Positions 213 through 8,175 of a DNA stretch of 25,456 bases are shown here, piece by piece (positions within the stretch are counted from its first letter, which is position 1; every line of letters starts with the position of its first letter). The DNA is from a virus. The notes beneath the pieces are model-generated. The model saw only the letters and a list, made by a program, of their open reading frames with translations. It did not search any database and was not told the origin of the DNA. The DNA is taken from the UHGV virus genome UHGV-0039951. One strand, 5' to 3'. The position numbers and the translations under genes were made by a program.

Positions 213-3158
213 TTAGTGCTTCCCTTCTATTAAGTCTAACCTAGCTTTTATTCTTTCTATTTCTCTGCGCTGCCATGCCGCCTCGATATAGAATAAGAGA
301 TCAGGTCTGACCCCCCATCTAGATCCTGCTGGCGTTATTTCAACGCGCTCAATGATGTCTTCCATTACCATCACTGGATTATCATCCTCATCAACAATGA
401 TGCTCCCGTCATTATCAGTCAGCGGCATTTCCCTTTGGCCAGTAATGACGTCATCATATACTGCGGGATAATCGTCATAGCAAAGAAAGGCATAGCGGCA
501 TGTTGTGCTTTCTTCTTCCATGAGTCCGTGAGAAATAAGAACATCACGAAGTTGCTGCGCGATTACACCATGATGTATCCTCGCCCCTTCTTCCCCCTTT
601 ATAGCGACAGCGTTCAGCCATTTATAAGCGATATACCTGACGTCACCCCAGGCATCCAGCAATGTTTCGTCAGGAGAGACCGGCTCTGTCTTTAATGTTC
701 CGTCACTGGTAACCACAGGATTGGAGCCAAGATAAACTATCGAGAACCTGTTTCCCGGACCACCAAGAGCATTTACATTATCAAGATAAGGTTTAACATC
801 TCCGTTCTCAAAAAGATGTTCGAGTGCGTTATATACCGCGCGACGTGGAGTACTGCTTCCGGAACCATGCAACGTTATCATTGCACCATCTGCTGAAGAC
901 GTTGTTTCACCGCCGCTAACGATTAATCTCTGAGCGGTAACATCATCAGACGGTACTTTCTTCGCAATAATGGCGTAATTACCCTCAAGTTTGACTTCCG
1001 CGCGAACTTGTCCTGATGTACCTGCATGGACAGTCAGTGACTGGACGGCAACATCATCTGTGAAATCAACGGGTACAGGAACCGTCCTCACGCCTGACGT
1101 CGACATAAAAGTAGGAAGCGTTCTGTTAGGAGTGGCTCCGTAGACAAAATCCCTTGAAACAAATTCTTCCTGTTTAATTTTCACCCTGAAACAATACAAA
1201 TCAGCCGGGTGACCATCGTGAACATAAGGATATTTTCTGTTGTTATCCCCTATGCTCCATGGGTTTAGAAAGTCTTCCCCACCGAAAATGTAGTACAGCC
1301 AGTTGTCTTTGATACAAACTGAACCAACACCAACCGCAGAGTTAACTATTCCGCCCTGATAAATCTGATCAGTAACATTAACCCACTCTACATTATCCAG
1401 ACTCCACTCATTGACGTTAACTCTGGTCATAAATGTTCTTGGATAGTTTCCTGCATAACGGTTATCAGGTTCTCCTCCTTCCCACTCACCAAATGCGCGC
1501 TCACTGCCAAAAATAATCAGCTCATCGCCAACTTTGGCAAAAGGAAGGTTTGAGTGATGAACATTATTTGGGAAGCGAAGAGAATTCCATGATGTACCTA
1601 AATCAGAGCTTCTGTGCAATGAACTACCGGGTTGAGTACTTAATGTCCCCCTGGTCGTCAGATACAGAATGCCATCATAATATTTTACACATGGCTCAGA
1701 TGCATTCGCCTCATATTCTGCAGGTATGCGTCTGCGAACAAAGCTACCAGGAGAACCGAAAGCATCAGAGAAATAGAGTATCCCAAGCTCGCGTGGACCA
1801 ATATCACCATTATGGTAGCCAACAGCAAAACTGTTATCGCTAATCGTCGCAAAACTGTGAATCTCAGTAACAGGAGTGCTTCCGTCAACAAAAGAAGGAA
1901 TAGTTCCAAGACTGGTTTTTCTCCATGGTGACGAGTGAAATGATGTACCAAAACTCCAGTATCTACCCTCGTTATTCTGATCCACATCCTGGGTATTTTG
2001 CGTCGTAACTGTAAAAGTATTTTTATCAATAACAGTAGTCACCGTCATATTCCCGGTAACACCTGTAACACCAGAGTTTGAGAAGTTGACAAAATCACCA
2101 GCAAATAATCCGTGATCAGTAATGCGAATATAAGCGACTTGCTGATTTGCTGCTTTCGTTATACCACCATAAACGCGAAGGCTGCGACTCATTGGGCGAT
2201 CCCACAACTCTGCAACCTGCAGTTTATTTCCGCTCACGGTCCGCGTCTCAATTACAGCAAAAAGGCGATTTCTGACAACCCCCATACTCATGCAGTGATA
2301 GTTAACTGTGGGATAGTTTTCATGTAAATCTGTAAGCCATTCCGGCGTTGTCCAGGTCTTCCCGTCATCTCCTGAGCGAACCCATGCAACATGGAGGTTA
2401 TTTACACCATGGCGGTCTCCAGCCATAAAAGGCGCATAGATGACATTGTCATATACAAACGTTTTATCCTGCGTCCAGGCGTTGTACCACGGTGTATCTG
2501 TAATTTTAAATAACTCTCCCTGGATAAAATCTTCAGAAACATAAAAAAGAGGCTGACCCGGTATTCTCTCAAATAAAAAACGAGCATTTTTAAATCGACT
2601 GACATCTGGAAGAGTTGATACTTTAAAAGTAAGCCCTCGCCCATCTATCTTTTCACCACCTGTTGCAACAGAAAGTAATTCTGATAGAGCTGATGTATCA
2701 TCATGAACACCATCACCAATAGCCCCCCAACCTCTTACATCATAACTGTCTCTCCATCTTGCTATCTGAAGTTTTGGGTATTTATTCGCTCCATCTGGGT
2801 CTTCTAATTGCTGCCGTAACTGATCAGGATCATACTTCAGCACATTCGGAAAATAGAACTGCTGTGTACCATACGCATCATAAACAGCCATAGAATGGCC
2901 TTGCACGGTTACGAATTTGGCAATCTGTCCGTTATATACCGGATATCCAGCAGCGTTAATGATGATTGGTTGAGAAACAGGAACGTGAGATCCATCTTCG
3001 TTCTCTACATAAACCTGAATCTGGTTTTCAGGATTTACCGGGTCAGTGTCAATTTTTCCGATATAAATTTTGCCATTGGCTACGGCTTTAAAAGAACGCG
3101 CCATAGTGAAGAGTTGCGAAGGCATACTCACTACAACATTGGCTGTAATGTCTGTCAT
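213..3158 (-). CDS. Tailspike protein: P22 gp9-type head-binding N-terminal domain, sialidase-like (Asp-box) receptor-degrading domain, likely endosialidase; C-terminal intramolecular chaperone (peptidase S74-type) domain
   Basis: 981 aa. The N-terminal ~110 aa ([56 protein letters not shown]...) match the P22 tailspike head-binding domain as I recall it. Two Asp-box motifs ([16 protein letters not shown]) and xRIP motifs (FERIP, RRRIP). The C-terminal ~160 aa begin at S818 in the motif SDGTLK, the pattern of self-cleaving chaperone domains of endosialidases and T5 L-shaped tail fibre. Confidence 0.85.
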
Positions 3159-3290: not shown

Positions 3291-3548
3291 ATGATGTACA
3301 GCAAATACGATGAGGCGCAGTTCCACTTGAGGCTTACACACGAGTTGCACGCTAAGATTAAGCAGCGTGCAAAAATGAATAACAGGTCTATCAATTCCGA
3401 AATTGTGGCTACGATGGAAGAATCACTCTCCAAACCATCACCTGTAAGCGGGTATCGTGATGAAGAAGAGAGGCTGGCCTCATTAATCTCGGAACGAGTA
3501 AAAGAAGTTGCGGCTGAAATTCTAAGGAAAGAAAAAACCCGCGATTAA
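3291..3548 (+). CDS. mnt: Mnt-like ribbon-helix-helix (Arc/MetJ superfamily) repressor, 85 aa
   Basis: Only the C-terminal part of ORF 2895..3548 is plausible. ATG at 3291 is preceded by GGTGAGG (3278-3284). The protein (FHLRLTHELHAKIKQRAKMNNRSINSEIVATMEESLSKPSPVSGYRDEEERLA...) closely parallels P22 Mnt (NGRSMNSELLQIVQDALSKPSPVTGYRNDAERLA) as recalled. Confidence 0.7.
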   Translation: MMYSKYDEAQFHLRLTHELHAKIKQRAKMNNRSINSEIVATMEESLSKPSPVSGYRDEEERLASLISERVKEVAAEILRKEKTRD

Positions 3549-3563
3549 GCGGGTTTAGTTTTC
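3532..3563. terminator. Bidirectional intrinsic terminator between the convergent mnt-like gene and the antirepressor gene
   Basis: Stem AAACCCGC / GCGGGTTT with loop GATTAA, flanked by an A-run on the 5' side and T-rich sequence on the 3' side, so it works in both orientations. The mnt-like stop codon lies in the loop. Confidence 0.6.
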
Positions 3564-3574
3564 ATTATAAAATG

Positions 3575-4303
3575 TTACGCCACATTTGAGCCATGTAGCA
3601 GGTGTTGTAGTGCTTTAACGCCTTCAGAATTGTAACGGAACGCCTCTACCTGTTTGCTGGAATGCGCCGATTTATCTAGGAAGAACTTCCCGTACTGCTC
3701 AGTTTTGAGGTTGTTTGCGTTAGCAATGCGACCAATCTTGTTGGCCGTTACTCCAAGCTGCTCTGCAACCTCCCCTGCTGAGTAGTAATGCTCTTCTATT
3801 GCCGGAAGAGGTATTGCATTAAAACCAACGAGCGGGTTGATTATACTTGCTGCCGCTGTCTGCTTTGCCTCAGGCGCAAGATTTGGCATCAGATCGAACA
3901 GATTGGTAACAGCTTCAACCGTCATTTTCAATGTTCTCGCTTGACGATACTCAACAAGTCCACTCGCTGATTTACCGCTTTTAATGTGCGCTTCTTGCAT
4001 ACTTTCAAGTTGGTCTACCAGTGAGCGGCGAACGGCTTTTGACTCGCGAGCGGCAACTCGCAATGCTTGCTTGATTGACATCTCAATGATAACCATCGAA
4101 GTTTTGTTCGCTTTTTGCACTACACTTTTTGTGTAGTGCTCTCCATCCAATTCATCTTCAATTTTCTCGATGAATTTGTTATTACGAACCTCCGGCTCAC
4201 CGCACTGTCTACGAGCCTGATTTACCATCTCAAGCAGGCGCTGGCTGTCAATGGTTTTATCCGTGACAACGGATCCGATGTTTGCTACATTCTTAAAAGT
4301 CAT
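3575..4303 (-). CDS. Antirepressor-like protein (AntA-like N-terminus, KilAC-like C-terminal motif), 243 aa
   Basis: ORF 3575..4354 trimmed to the ATG at 4303 (MTFKNVANIG...), which is preceded by AAGGAA at 7-nt spacing. The C-terminal motif YYSAGEVAEQLGVTANKIGRIANANNLKTEQYGKFF resembles KilAC domains. Family assignment from recalled motifs only. Confidence 0.5.
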   Translation of the reverse strand: MTFKNVANIGSVVTDKTIDSQRLLEMVNQARRQCGEPEVRNNKFIEKIEDELDGEHYTKSVVQKANKTSMVIIEMSIKQALRVAARESKAVRRSLVDQLESMQEAHIKSGKSASGLVEYRQARTLKMTVEAVTNLFDLMPNLAPEAKQTAAASIINPLVGFNAIPLPAIEEHYYSAGEVAEQLGVTANKIGRIANANNLKTEQYGKFFLDKSAHSSKQVEAFRYNSEGVKALQHLLHGSNVA

Positions 4304-4371
4304 TAGGCATTCCTTATGTGGTAGTAAGGGTGTGACATAGGCCGCCAGCAGCACACTGGCGGTTTTCTTTT
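4298..4371 (+). ncRNA. Putative Sar-like antisense RNA covering the RBS and start codon of the downstream antirepressor gene
   Basis: Candidate promoter GTGACA (4263-4268), 17-nt spacer, TACATT (4286-4291), then about 74 nt to the plus-strand terminator. The transcript would be complementary to the ATG at 4303 and SD at 4311-4316. Analogy to P22 sar RNA; inference only. Confidence 0.25.
4342..4371 (+). terminator. Plus-strand intrinsic terminator antisense to the antirepressor operon
   Basis: Perfect 7-bp stem CCGCCAG / CTGGCGG with 7-nt loop, followed by TTTTCTTTTT on the plus strand. On the minus strand the hairpin is followed by no U-tract, so it is orientation-specific. Confidence 0.55.
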
Positions 4372-4391
4372 TGCGCCGTCCGGCGCACCAA

Positions 4392-5030
4392 TCAATGAAT
4401 CCATTCCTCGCCGCGCAGTTTTGCCAGCATTGGCTGAGCGTTCTTTACGACAAAATTGTTGGTATCAAGATTCTTCATTTCACGAAGAAGTGATTTCTTG
4501 GTTTCTTCTGACATGTAGCGAGTCTCATATGCAATATCGTAAATCCTTCCAGAAAGCTCAGAACCAATTTGCTTCATTCCTGGGTAGATGTGTTTGCACA
4601 TTTGTTGACTCTTCTCCATCCACAATTGTAAGTAGCAGAGATTAACCAGCTCTTCGTCAGTAAACTGTTTTGCAATCGGTGAGCATTCTGCCTGCCGATC
4701 CAAAATATCCAGCACCCAGCGGCGGAACTCTTTAGCCTTGGGCGTAGAAGCAAACATCGCCACCAAGTGAGCGCCTCGGAGCGAGTAAACTCTGACCGAT
4801 TTGTTACGTAAGCTATTGTTTATCCCGTTGACCTTCATATTGAGGGTCAATGACATTGAGTCGGAAAACTCGTCAGCATTACGGGCATAAATTTGGCTGA
4901 TGGCATCAGTTTTTTTATAGCCGAGAGCCTTAGCTAGTTCGGTGGAGGTAAACCAGATAGACCCACCCTCTGTTACAGGGTTAAAGGTGAATCCTTGGAA
5001 GTTATAATCTGATTTTGCTATAATGTTCAT
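4392..5030 (-). CDS. ant: Antirepressor with BRO-N-type N-terminal domain (Ant-like), 212 aa from ATG 5030; ORF could extend to 5114
   Basis: The motif YNFQGFTFNPVTEGGSIWFTSTELAKALGY is typical of BRO-N/antirepressor N-termini. ATG at 5030 is preceded by AAGGAA. An alternative start at 5114 also has an SD and would overlap the arc-like stop. Confidence 0.6.
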   Translation of the reverse strand: MNIIAKSDYNFQGFTFNPVTEGGSIWFTSTELAKALGYKKTDAISQIYARNADEFSDSMSLTLNMKVNGINNSLRNKSVRVYSLRGAHLVAMFASTPKAKEFRRWVLDILDRQAECSPIAKQFTDEELVNLCYLQLWMEKSQQMCKHIYPGMKQIGSELSGRIYDIAYETRYMSEETKKSLLREMKNLDTNNFVVKNAQPMLAKLRGEEWIH

Positions 5031-5103
5031 GTTAGTTTCCTTGCATACGGTTACTGACATAGAGGCCCGGTTTGTGTTCGCGCACTGCCGGGCTTCACTG
5101 TTT

Positions 5104-5277
5104 TTACTGGGCATTAGCTCTTTCCTCTCTCAGGCTTTTAGCCAGTCGCTGCACAATCGCAGAGTTGATAGAAATTCCATCCATTTCAGCAACACGTCTA
5201 ATCTCCTCCTTCATTCGCGCTGGCAAACGAAGCTGGAAACTTTGGCTTTTACGACCTGTGTAAAGCACATCTTTCAT
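5104..5277 (-). CDS. arc: Arc-like ribbon-helix-helix repressor, 57 aa
   Basis: ATG at 5277 preceded by GGGAGA. The protein MKDVLYTGRKSQSFQLRLPARMKEEIRRVAEMDGISINSAIVQRLAKSL parallels P22 Arc (QFNLRWPREVLDLVRKVAEENGRSVNSEIYQRVMESF). The ORF-track start at 5292 is a GTG inside the SD region. Confidence 0.65.
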   Translation of the reverse strand: MKDVLYTGRKSQSFQLRLPARMKEEIRRVAEMDGISINSAIVQRLAKSLREERANAQ

Positions 5278-5298
5278 AAGTAATTCTCCCACAATGAT

Positions 5299-5388: not shown

Positions 5389-5772
5389 ATGAGCAAGTTC
5401 CCTAGTCATGAAATGGATAGGTTCAATATCAGGCTTCCGGCAGGAATGCGGGATGCTATAGCCTTAAGAGCAAAGGAAAACGGCAGATCAATGAATACAG
5501 AACTAGTGTTTATCATTGATGATGCATTGAAGTCTCCGGTGCCTGCTGAGGTTGATAACTCAAGGATTATGAAGATTTACTCAAACCTCTCCGGGAACAG
5601 GCCATCAAACAAAGAAGAGTTTGAGCGGTGGGAGAATGAGCTAGTCAAAGCAATTTTCTACTTACTAGATAGCATCAGTTCTCATTCGCAAATGTACCAA
5701 GCTCTCAGGAGCTTAAGGCAAGATGCATATAAAAATGTTTTTGGCGATGATGCTGAAGACATCCAGTTTTGA
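5389..5772 (+). CDS. Mnt/Arc-type ribbon-helix-helix regulator with ~80-aa C-terminal extension, 127 aa
   Basis: ATG at 5389 preceded by GAGG. The N-terminus ([38 protein letters not shown]) is an RHH motif of Mnt type. Divergent from the arc/ant operon. Confidence 0.7.
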
Positions 5773-5816
5773 AGACCATTTCATCTGGTATCTTGCGTAA
5801 AACTAAGGAGGTTGGT

Positions 5817-6311
5817 GTGTCTGATTCTATGAGTTACGCTGTGCTAGTTGCCGCAACTCTATTTCTGGGGATAGGGTTGCAGATTGCGTGGTTCTTTTTT
5901 TCTAGTTTTATTAAACGTAAAAGAATTGAATCAAGGATATCTGAGATTTCTATTGCTATAGGGAAAAATGCTGAAAATCCAGAGAATGAGGCCTGCGCAC
6001 TGAATTACCTTAAAGAAAAGTTTTCCCCTGAAAAATTTGAAAACAGAATTACTGATGCTCTTGGATTGGTAATATCAGTAATTCATATGCCACTAAGTTT
6101 GCTGATAACAGTGTGGTACTTCGCCATGATCGCCGGAAGAATATTTGGCTTCATGAATATAGAGCCTGTAGTTCTTTGGGTTCCAATGATACTGCAACTG
6201 TTGTTAAGCGTTGCTATCTTTATTTTTTCTGTTTTTATAAAAATTGTCTTTGGAAGATACCCCGGAGAAGCGAAGGGATTTAATAAAGAATTCATAAAAA
6301 CTATAAAATAA
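5817..6311 (+). CDS. Small integral membrane protein (3 predicted TM helices); candidate superinfection-exclusion or lysogenic-conversion protein at the position sieA occupies in P22
   Basis: The ORF-track start at 5769 is TTG. A strong SD (AAGGAGG, 5804-5810) sits 6 nt before GTG 5817. Three hydrophobic segments. AT-rich composition relative to neighbours. Confidence 0.55.
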
Positions 6312-6333: not shown

Positions 6334-8175
6334 CTACTGCCGGGTCGCTTCGTTAGCTAAGAGCGGGCGCACGGCAGTAGCCGCCTGATTTAGCGCTCTT
6401 TCATAGGCTGGTGTTCCTGCTTTGGTGTTTGCCAGACGTAAGAGCGCATTCCTTGCTGCTTTGGACTCATACAAACGCATCATTGCACCAAAACCAGCCT
6501 CAAGCCCCATTGATACGCCAAGAGTCGCGGTTGCGCCAATCGTCCTTATCCTGTTGGCTTGCGATTGCCCCGTCTGAGTTACTACATTTGCGGTGTCTGA
6601 CCTTGCTGTTTGCTGTAGAACTTCATGAAGAGCATCAAGCTCTTTCATATGCTTTCCAGAAAAAATAGTGTTGTAAATTTCACCACCTGACTGAGATTTC
6701 AGCTTATTAACTTCAGTGATGAACTTGGCTGGAGAGTCACCGGCCTTTTCCGCTATTTTGCTGACGTAAGCTGCACGCATAGCATCTTTACCATTATCAT
6801 CCAATGCGCTCCAGATTCGTTTCACGTCAGATGGTTTTCTGCTTAATACAACGGTATTTATAAGTTCAGGGCTGGCTTCACTACTTGCCTTATTGAGCTT
6901 GTTAGCAATGTTTTTATTAAGCACCTTATTATAAACGTTTGCATAATCGGAATTTGCTTTAAGGTATTTTGCTGCGTCTGATGCACCGCGGTTTTTAGCA
7001 ACTGCGTTACGAAGGTCTTTTGACATTGCATTCTCTACCATATTGGTAGCTGCTTTTGCCTGGTTGGGGAAGACCATAGCATCTCCCTGAACATTAGATC
7101 TAAATGCTGTTCTGTGCTGACGCAAGAGATCAAACGTAACCTCCAAATCAGTTGCAGGGTTTGCTAATTCTTCACGTAGGTTACGTAAGGATGTAAGCAG
7201 GCTTTGATTGGCAGACGTCCCAAGCCGTTCCTGTCTTGCGATCGCTGTATTCAGAGCATTCATGGTATTTGTGGTATCAACTGCGGCATTACCCATTTTA
7301 TTGGTGACGTCATTGATAACAGCGCCAGCGGCATCCTTCCGCCCCCTTAACGTGGTGGTCAGAGATTTCACCACATCATCAGGGTTGTACTCACCAAAAC
7401 GGTCAAAATAATTACTTACCAGCTTACTACGCGTTGCATATTGCTCCGCTCGCTTTGAGCCTGTCCCGAGCAAAGCCCCCTCGGCATCCTGAGTAAGGCC
7501 GCGAGTGAAAGCATTTTTCGGCGGGATAACATCAGATGTCATTGGTGTCACGCCCATCGATTCTGATGTGGCAATTTTATTCGCCACTTCTGGCGCAATA
7601 TCACCTTTTATAGCCGTTATTCCACGCCCTATTCCCTTTGCTGCTGCGGAAAGAACACCCTGAGCGGCAAGGTTAACTCCGGCATTTTTAGCTGCATTTT
7701 GTGCGAAATCGCCTTTCTGATTTGCGGCCTCTGCCAGTGAGCCAATAGCCATGCTTCCTGCCGTTCCAACTCCTGGAACTAAATACCCACCAATTGTTTC
7801 ACCGGCTTGCGCGTAGGGGTCTGTCGGTCTGTCTACTGGACGATAAACATCATCCAAAACCTTGGGTCCACCAAGCCCCTGACTGATTGCATTAATCAGA
7901 CTTGCGCCACCCTGCAAAACGTCAAATGGTATGTTCACCAGACCACGACCAGCCTGTTCTGCAATTTGCCCTGCACTTTGACCACCAGTGAGCCAATCGC
8001 CAGCTTGTTGCATCAATGATGGTTCTTCACGTGCTGGTTCATTATTGGCCTGATTAACTGTTTGTTGCTGAACAGCCTGACCAGCAAAATACTCATCAAT
8101 GGCGGTGCCAATATCTTCCGTGCTCGTACCATCAGGGAAGGTAAATGTCTTACCGTTTGCAGTTACTTTCATCAT
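6334..8175 (-). CDS. Ejection (injection) protein, P22 gp16-like
   Basis: 613 aa; last of three ejection-protein genes after the tail needle, in P22 order 7-20-16; size matches P22 gp16 (~609 aa). Assigned by synteny and size. Confidence 0.7.

Follow-up and report, generated by a model that had tools for sequence, protein, structure and literature searches.

A predicted antisense transcription unit at the ant1-ant2 junction

The stretch of DNA analysed here (25,456 nucleotides [nt] of the virus genome UHGV-0039951; hereafter, the window) is the immI or "ant moron" region of a P22-like (Lederbergvirus-type) prophage of Escherichia coli. Two neighbouring minus-strand genes of this region, ant1 and ant2, are the subject of this analysis: the gap between them and the first codons of ant2 hold a plus-strand promoter and a plus-strand intrinsic terminator, which would together specify a short antisense RNA covering the ribosome-binding site (RBS) of ant2. 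The first-pass annotation had called both genes antirepressor genes, which stands for ant1, whereas ant2 carries this assignment by its match to PHROG 1726 only and has no Pfam or NCBIfam match. The 2 genes and the elements of the unit are as follows.

4392-5030, minus strand: ant1, antirepressor gene with Bro-N and P22_AR_C domains; stop codon at 4392-4394
3575-4303, minus strand: ant2, the target gene (242 amino acids; PHROG 1726); its ATG is the complement of 4301-4303
4263-4268, plus strand: −35 hexamer GTGACA, complement of the third base of ant2 codon 12, codon 13 (GTC) and codon 14 (AC)
4269-4285, plus strand: 17-nt spacer ending in TGc, with the extended −10 motif TG at 4283-4284
4286-4291, plus strand: −10 hexamer TACATT, complement of ant2 codons 5-6 (AAT GTA)
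4298-4372, plus strand: predicted non-coding antisense RNA of approximately 74-75 nt, starting at A4298, 7 nt past the −10 hexamer
4299-4336, plus strand: predicted 5' stem-loop (SL1), in which GUC (4299-4301) pairs with GAC (4334-4336)
4339-4365, plus strand: terminator stem-loop (SL2), CCGCCAG-N7-CTGGCGG at 4342-4362; 10 pairs, 6 of them G-C
4363-4372, plus strand: T/U tract TTTTCTTTTT, the end of the mobile module

The promoter GTGACA-17-TACATT and the terminator are both present as described in the first-pass annotation, and the TG at 4283-4284 additionally makes the −10 element an extended one. The Shine-Dalgarno (SD) sequence of ant2, AAGGAA, is the complement of 4310-4315, and this anti-SD segment is contained in the inner stem of SL1 (CCUUAU/GUAAGG). 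As had been claimed, the RNA from A4298 to approximately position 4371 (74 nt) is exactly complementary to the SD and start codon of ant2; the predicted RNA spans the ant2 mRNA from approximately −69 to +6 relative to the A of the AUG, with full complementarity. The 8-bp core of SL2 is formed by GCCGCCAG (4341-4348) pairing with CUGGCGGU (4356-4363) around the loop at 4349-4355, and 2 further pairs involve the U tract. Since the only open reading frame (ORF) inside it is ATG-TGG-TAG, the predicted RNA is considered non-coding. The accompanying statement that there is no plus-strand ORF to terminate needs a qualification: a plus-strand ORF of 63 codons does exist at 4115-4306 (TTG start, TAG at 4304-4306), antisense to ant2 codons 1-63 and with the antisense promoter located within it. 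It ends 36 nt before the hairpin and was rejected as the object of termination, being a variable shadow ORF of 52-84 amino acids in some relatives and absent in others.

Conservation of the promoter

We collected 179 loci encoding an ant2-type N-terminus by scanning a genome collection once and viral contigs three times and by adding GenBank phages; the queries were the ant2 protein of the window and 2 relatives at 60-65% identity. Promoter and hairpin are kept at a fixed offset from the start codon in 178 of these loci, with the −10 hexamer ending exactly 9 nt before the start-codon CAT. The −35 hexamer, with 1.65-2.0 bits of information per position, reads GTGACA in 70, TCGACG in 4 and TCGACA in 1 of 75 unique sequences. 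The spacer measures 17 nt in all 178 loci, although its positions carry 0.08-0.9 bit, whereas the T and G of the extended −10 motif are invariant (2 bits each) and are followed by C, T, A or G. The −10 hexamer occurs as TACATT, TAAATT, TAAAGT, TAAACT or TACAGT, that is, with positions 1, 2, 4 and 6 invariant (TA.A.T, 2 bits) and variation confined to positions 3 and 5, which are those that sigma-70 tolerates best. The predicted +1 is an A in 41 of 46 unique promoters. Such a profile corresponds to a sigma-70 promoter with an extended −10, superimposed on ant2 codons 5-14.

The same region stands out in the coding sequence. Synonymous-codon identity over codons 1-14 amounts to 0.934, the top value among 229 sliding windows along ant2 (mean 0.72, standard deviation 0.09); it is 1.00 at codons 5-7 and 12-13, lower at the spacer codons 8 and 11, declines directly past codon 14 and sinks to 0.3-0.6 directly past codon 18. 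Where codons 5-7 do change the protein (NVA to NLA, TLA, TLT or TVA), only tolerated promoter positions are altered. Collectively, the profile, the synonymous peak and the retention in 178 of 179 loci suggest that the unit possesses what would be expected of any cis-antisense small RNA (sRNA), namely, its own opposite-strand promoter under selection, and make it a clean candidate case of a promoter that is embedded in, and constrains, the first codons of a gene.

A perfect palindrome, ATCCGT-GACA-ACGGAT (4258-4273, plus strand), overlaps the −35 hexamer. It was considered as an operator and rejected, as it is not conserved in other lineages; the palindrome is probably fortuitous, although it could be a lineage-specific operator.

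Covariation and strand specificity of the terminator

The terminator stem exists in 13 sequence variants, including GCCGCCAG/CTGGCGGT, GCCAGCAG/CTGTTGGC, GCCGATAG/CTATCGGC, GCCGGTAG/CTACCGGC and ACCGTCAG/CTGACGGT. In an alignment of 66 unique RNAs, the 8-bp core is nevertheless 100% paired, with compensatory double changes at 3 stem pairs, one of which appears in 5 types (CG, GU, AU, GC and UA). Double-change cells number 41, whereas column shuffles give 10 ± 2.3 (with 41 reached in 0 of 500), and sliding the partner strand by 1-3 columns lowers pairing to 20-55%. The loop is free in both sequence and length (5-7 nt).

Which strand the hairpin serves can be read from the pairs that are not Watson-Crick. 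On the plus strand, all 600 stem cells are paired, 55 of them as G·U, and the same cells are A·C or C·A in the ant mRNA, so that the minus strand pairs in 545 of 600 cells. Consistently, the 9 nt 3' of the stem contain on average 7.4 T (minimum 6) on the plus strand versus 2.9 on the minus strand (75 unique relatives). Judged from these sequence patterns, the G·U pairs and the T tract exclude a minus-strand terminator and argue against a hairpin that operates purely at the mRNA level. Together with the covariation and the 10 pairs of the stem, they suggest an intrinsic terminator on the antisense strand, the other feature generally expected of a cis-antisense sRNA.

Body and folding of the predicted RNA

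Between the +1 and the terminator, the RNA body has drifted into several sequence types (among them the type of the window, the "GGTTGGACCC" type and the Proteus type), each of which keeps the complement of the start codon and SD; in relatives, the RNA would measure 63-78 nt. For every type, folding predicts a 5' stem-loop that nucleotides 2-5 close, with the terminator behind it. The closing pair of SL1 shifts with ant2 codon 2, being GUC/GAC in most loci, CUCA/UGGG in the Proteus group and UUC/GAA in locus L117, and this closing pair accounts for the TGACAT motif found just upstream of the hairpin. The positions of SL1 cannot be aligned between lineages, covariation being given at the lineage level for the closing pair only, and RNAalifold on 16 sequences recovered the terminator and no common 5' stem.

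Module boundaries and distribution

Similarity between the loci stops directly past the T tract, and the 60 nt that follow form 28 unrelated clusters, most of which are the 3' ends of differing Bro-N-type ant1 genes. As judged from these boundaries, the promoter, the RNA body, the terminator and the ant2 gene move together as one recombination module. In phage phiKp_30, from which ant1 is deleted, the unit is kept along with 20 nt of the ant1 3' end. The module is found also in the siphovirus SPN3UB (locus L002, 2420-2531), in which the same hairpin and a TCGACA-17-TGcTACATT promoter precede gp22, annotated as a "transcriptional regulator". The product of gp22 has a related N-terminus that is 5 residues longer, and the predicted RNA of approximately 81 nt overlaps approximately 20 nt of coding sequence. 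A covariance model of the unit (R1), built without SPN3UB, matches the SPN3UB unit at 43.6 bits; on this sequence evidence, the antisense module crosses phage morphotypes. In the window, R1 finds a single copy (4298-4372, 75.4 bits, E = 5e-12), and no other credible match was obtained in 69 kb. The model can be used for annotating the predicted antisense RNA.

Five loci with a diverged N-terminus (L088-L091 and L208) have neither the promoter nor the canonical hairpin, and such joint loss is what a single functional unit predicts. L088-L091 are IMG/VR contigs; in L088 (3408-4906), 3 copies of sRNA-Xcc1 (RF02221, 67-73 bits) are located just downstream, which suggests a differing, possibly integron-like, context.

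The unit is present in 77 of 5,426 complete Escherichia coli genomes, in none of which an RNA feature is annotated; an identical copy is carried, for example, by E. coli MS1657 (NZ_CP135957, 1578272-1578442). The ant2 gene family occurs also in Salmonella, Klebsiella, Proteus, Morganella, Serratia and others. The GenBank and RefSeq records examined annotate neither the RNA nor a function of ant2, and the unit is not described in Rfam 15, in the inspected annotations or in the literature searched, including searches with the hairpin sequence. The literature search likewise returned no second sar-like RNA and no differential RNA sequencing (dRNA-seq) of antirepressor antisense RNAs. The unit represents a new family of RNA whose kind is well known, with comparative support that is unusually clean: whereas its principle will not surprise a specialist, the family is widespread and unannotated and would guard an uncharacterised gene.

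Relationship to sar and other antisense RNAs

To our knowledge, sar is the textbook and essentially the sole antisense RNA guarding a P22-type antirepressor. The first-pass annotation had proposed a counterpart of sar over the ant2 RBS, and the promoter conserved at synonymous sites, the covariation, the strand-specific G·U pairs and the boundary at the T tract strongly support this reading. Like that of P22 sar, the promoter of the ant2 unit has a TGc extended −10 motif, lies in the opening codons of its target and faces upstream. The predicted RNA is of similar length (74-75 nt, and 63-78 nt across relatives, versus 68/69 nt for sar) and would likewise consist of 2 stem-loops: SL1, closed by the 5'-terminal nucleotides around the anti-SD (in P22 sar, GUUGGU/ACUGAC encloses the anti-SD and is followed by the terminator), and SL2, an intrinsic terminator in the upstream intercistronic gap. 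Length, promoter position in the 5' end of the target and 2 stem-loops thus reproduce the sar-type architecture, with SL1 as its weakly supported part. In both cases, the RNA is perfectly complementary to the SD region of a gene of the arc-ant operon that is also crossed by late transcription.

The differences are equally clear. The target of the ant2 unit belongs to a different protein family, unrelated to P22 Ant; the unit is located at ant1-ant2 rather than at arc-ant, and it is ant1, not ant2, that shares P22_AR_C with P22 Ant. Furthermore, the ant2-unit RNA covers the whole AUG, the −10 hexamer being separated from the CAT by 9 nt, as opposed to 3-4 nt in P22 and in the ant1 unit described below. 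The Rfam sar model (RF00262; gathering score of 43 bits) has no match in the window at the gathering threshold and none in the surrounding 2.5 kb or 0.87 kb when E ≤ 10 is allowed, whereas the positive controls P22 and SPN3UB score 97.8 and 48 bits, respectively. In loci L029, L101 and L096, the sar model scores 84, 50 and 45 bits, in all cases at arc-ant1 and never at the ant2 unit, so that, in these loci, a bona fide Rfam sar over ant1 coexists with an ant2-type unit over ant2. Conversely, model R1 has no match to P22 sar. Rfam scans of the window and 21 related loci revealed no family matching the unit, the scores of SgrS and Hrs13 (13-14 bits) being noise. Homology to sar, for which the shared TGcTA −10 motif and the UGAC motif closing SL1 could be invoked, is therefore not demonstrable by covariance models in either direction, and by this measure the ant2 unit is analogous to sar without belonging to its family. 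The TGcTA extended −10 in an "x-(I/V)-A" codon triplet and the UGAC-type SL1 motif that the 2 share may reflect convergence or very old common ancestry. If the unit acts as predicted, a second RNA family, unrelated to sar, would have the same job for a different, widespread gene family.

Other phage RNAs offer partial parallels. In P1 and P7, the small RNA c4 blocks translation of the antirepressor operon (icd-ant) by pairing around the RBS (PMC12197685). The ant2-unit RNA would, similarly to c4, pair around the RBS of an antirepressor-type gene. However, c4 originates upstream of its target on the strand that the two share, by processing of their common transcript, and its pairing involves short loop sequences, whereas the ant2-unit RNA would come from the opposite strand and be fully complementary; the Rfam scan of the window gave no C4 match. 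Short cis-antisense RNAs that end at a terminator and tune a lysis-lysogeny regulator are also exemplified by lambda OOP, aQ, P22 sas and 23as (PMC12197685, PMC13397905). The ant2 unit would resemble these as a short cis-antisense transcript ending at a terminator; it differs from OOP, which overlaps the cII 3' end and acts through RNase III-dependent decay, in overlapping the translation initiation region.

The window contains a further unit of this kind, which the first-pass annotation had missed:

4995-5097, plus strand: sister sar-like antisense unit covering the RBS of ant1, in the canonical arc-ant1 location, with the promoter TTGGAA-18-TGcTATAAT

This sister unit has 2 stem-loops (z = −5.55), and an alignment with P22 sar covers its promoter and 5' half, the Rfam sar model giving no match to it even at E ≤ 10. 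The same place is occupied by a canonical sar in L029, L101, L096 and SPN3UB. By position and alignment, the sister unit is a divergent sar variant below the reach of the Rfam model.

Genomic setting and proposed function

The genes around the 2 antirepressor-type genes are, in order:

8172-9551 and 6334-8175, minus strand: ejection genes (PHROG "released upon infection" and "DNA transfer protein")
5769-6311, plus strand: sieA-like gene
5389-5772, plus strand: Mnt/Arc-like ribbon-helix-helix (RHH) gene (mnt)
5104-5292, minus strand: arc
3291-3548, plus strand: second small Mnt/Arc-like RHH gene (85 amino acids)
213-3158, minus strand: tailspike gene

The order is thus ejection genes (minus), sieA and mnt (plus), arc-ant1-ant2 (minus), the second mnt-like gene (plus) and the tailspike gene (minus), an arrangement matched in phage JEP4 at 94% identity. 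The ant1 mRNA runs on into ant2. With approximately 30 nt between the hairpin and the ant2 SD, there is no room for a conserved sense promoter, and the upstream contexts of ant2 differ between loci; therefore, ant2 would have to be expressed by read-through.

The match of ant2 to PHROG 1726 ("anti-repressor") has an E-value of 7e-101. BLASTP revealed no similarity of ant2 to P22 Ant, and a sequence search of the PDB gave no identification. The family comprises 2,109 database homologues in Enterobacterales and Morganellaceae, nearly all labelled "hypothetical protein". The AlphaFold model is of medium quality (predicted local distance difference test score of 67), and in a Foldseek comparison with the PDB the C-terminal ~70 residues weakly resemble the winged helix of MerR, RacA, BldC and Xis (E of about 0.1). 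A dedicated lock on this gene would hint that its protein may be harmful to lysogeny or late development.

In P22, transcription of the late operon crosses the ant region to reach the tailspike gene (PMC2629481, PMC12111858), ant is transcribed from PLATE as well as PANT (PMC12197685, PMC12111858, PMC2629481), and the role assigned to sar is the translational silencing of ant on late transcripts (PMC12197685, PMC12111858). We propose that ant2 is controlled in the same manner. A constitutive-type sigma-70 extended −10 promoter within ant2 codons 5-14 would fire on the opposite strand at approximately A4298, yielding a non-coding RNA of ~75 nt that ends at the intrinsic terminator in the ant1-ant2 gap. 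This RNA would pair with the 5' untranslated region, SD and AUG of any ant2 message and block binding of the 30S ribosomal subunit, and the resulting ~70-bp duplex would probably also be cut by RNase III. Transcription of ant2 would come by read-through from Pant via arc and ant1 and, late in infection, also from the late operon, whose transcription continues to the tailspike gene. Repression of transcription by Arc and Mnt could not silence ant2 on late transcripts, whereas an antisense RNA occluding the SD and AUG could. Because late transcription must reach the tailspike gene, ant2 would not be open to transcriptional silencing without loss of the tailspike, a problem that the antisense RNA would solve. 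Each antirepressor-like cistron of the operon would then have its own antisense lock.

We consider it very probable that a functional promoter-terminator unit exists at this position and likely that it represses translation of ant2; as a whole, a cis-antisense RNA that blocks translation of ant2 transcribed by read-through, as sar does for ant, is the explanation that we favour and regard as probable. Several points weigh against it. The predicted RNA is known here from sequence alone, and the antirepressor identity of ant2 comes from its PHROG 1726 label only. In a single sequence, the promoter match is at chance level (4 sites versus 5.2 ± 2.4 in the shuffled region), so that the case rests on the comparative data. 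Among these, the regular expression used for tabulation demanded TG and TA...T, and the invariance at these positions carries weight only because the match keeps its register relative to the start codon across all 178 loci. Close relationship and mosaicism among many of the loci mean that locus counts exceed the number of independent events. Synonymous constraint is frequent at gene 5' ends for other reasons, such as translation initiation. Finally, SL1 is statistically weak, the mean z of the 5' bodies being −1.05, with 9 of 51 below −1.64.

The most serious competitor, although rather unlikely, accepts the same RNA and assigns it a different main effect, either interference with incoming transcription from Pant or the late operon, or uncoupling or destabilisation of the ant2 mRNA through RNase III cleavage, with RBS occlusion being secondary. 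The antisense promoter is convergent with Pant and the late operon and near consensus (5 of 6 positions in the −35 hexamer plus an extended −10), and full complementarity over ~70 bp makes a good RNase III substrate. Yet the RNA body is placed over the SD and AUG in every lineage despite sequence drift, the transcript stops after ~75 nt, which limits collision-type interference, and strong interference would be costly, since late transcription must pass to reach the tailspike gene. By contrast, the promoter could be discounted and only the terminator taken as functional, the hairpin and U tract insulating ant1 and arc from stray plus-strand transcription, for example, from the mnt-like gene at 3291-3548, and the promoter-like sequence being a by-product of constraint on the protein or on translation initiation. 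We find this very unlikely. The chance-level promoter match and the constraint common at gene 5' ends are compatible with it, and there is indeed a plus-strand gene ~750 nt upstream, but the mnt-like gene already has a bidirectional terminator at 3535-3556, and the unit is kept in 28 contexts, many of which lack such an upstream plus-strand gene. Furthermore, conservation tracks the sigma-70 profile rather than the codons (TG and TA.A.T fixed; the base after TG, −10 positions 3 and 5 and the spacer sequence free; 17 nt constant), amino acid changes spare the critical promoter bases, and L088-L091 and L208 have lost both elements, promoter and hairpin.

A role of the hairpin in the sense (minus-strand) mRNA, as an intercistronic processing or stability element or as an attenuator between ant1 and ant2, has very little probability. 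The hairpin is located 28 nt beyond the stop of ant1 and, with −19.5 kcal/mol, would likewise form in the mRNA, and Watson-Crick covariation as such is strand-neutral; however, the 55 of 600 cells with G·U on the plus strand leave the stem perfect only there, the T tract is invariant on the plus strand while the minus side is not T-rich (2.9 of 9), and the element travels with ant2, not with ant1. That the arrangement arose by chance and has no function, as the background rate of promoter-like matches in the region might suggest, is extremely unlikely in view of the comparative evidence taken as a whole, that is, the synonymous peak, the profile, the covariation, the R1 match, the strand bias and the module boundary; such conservation would have to have arisen with no selection.

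A broader version of the proposed silencing of ant2 by its antisense RNA can be put forward tentatively, and we hold it to be possible but doubtful. The ant2-type gene and its antisense RNA would form a portable, self-silenced cassette, with the promoter in codons 5-14 and the terminator as the recombination boundary, that can be inserted after any late-operon or immI-operon gene (28 contexts), with one RNA lock per antirepressor-like cistron. The RNA might also act in trans between co-resident or superinfecting phages as a determinant of immunity specificity, like c4 for P1 and P7; such action is conceivable because the RNA bodies have diverged into types and yet perfectly match their own gene.

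Other features of the immI region

The ant1 ORF extends to an ATG at 5114 and in this form (4392-5114, minus strand) overlaps arc. The likely start of ant1 is the ATG at 5030, preceded by the SD AAGGAAA, with a product of 212 amino acids; accordingly, 5031-5103 would be the arc-ant1 intergenic region that holds the sar-like terminator. At the other end of the gene, an inverted repeat, GCGCCGTCCGGCGC, is located at 4373-4386, directly beyond the T tract and before the ant1 stop codon. The repeat is part of the 3' flank of ant1, and several relatives have degraded forms of it (GCGCCGTCCTGTGC, GCGCAGTCCGGCGC). The second RHH gene sits between ant2 and the tailspike gene and is convergent with ant2, with which it has in common the bidirectional terminator, AAACCCGC-N6-GCGGGTTT, flanked by T runs on both strands.

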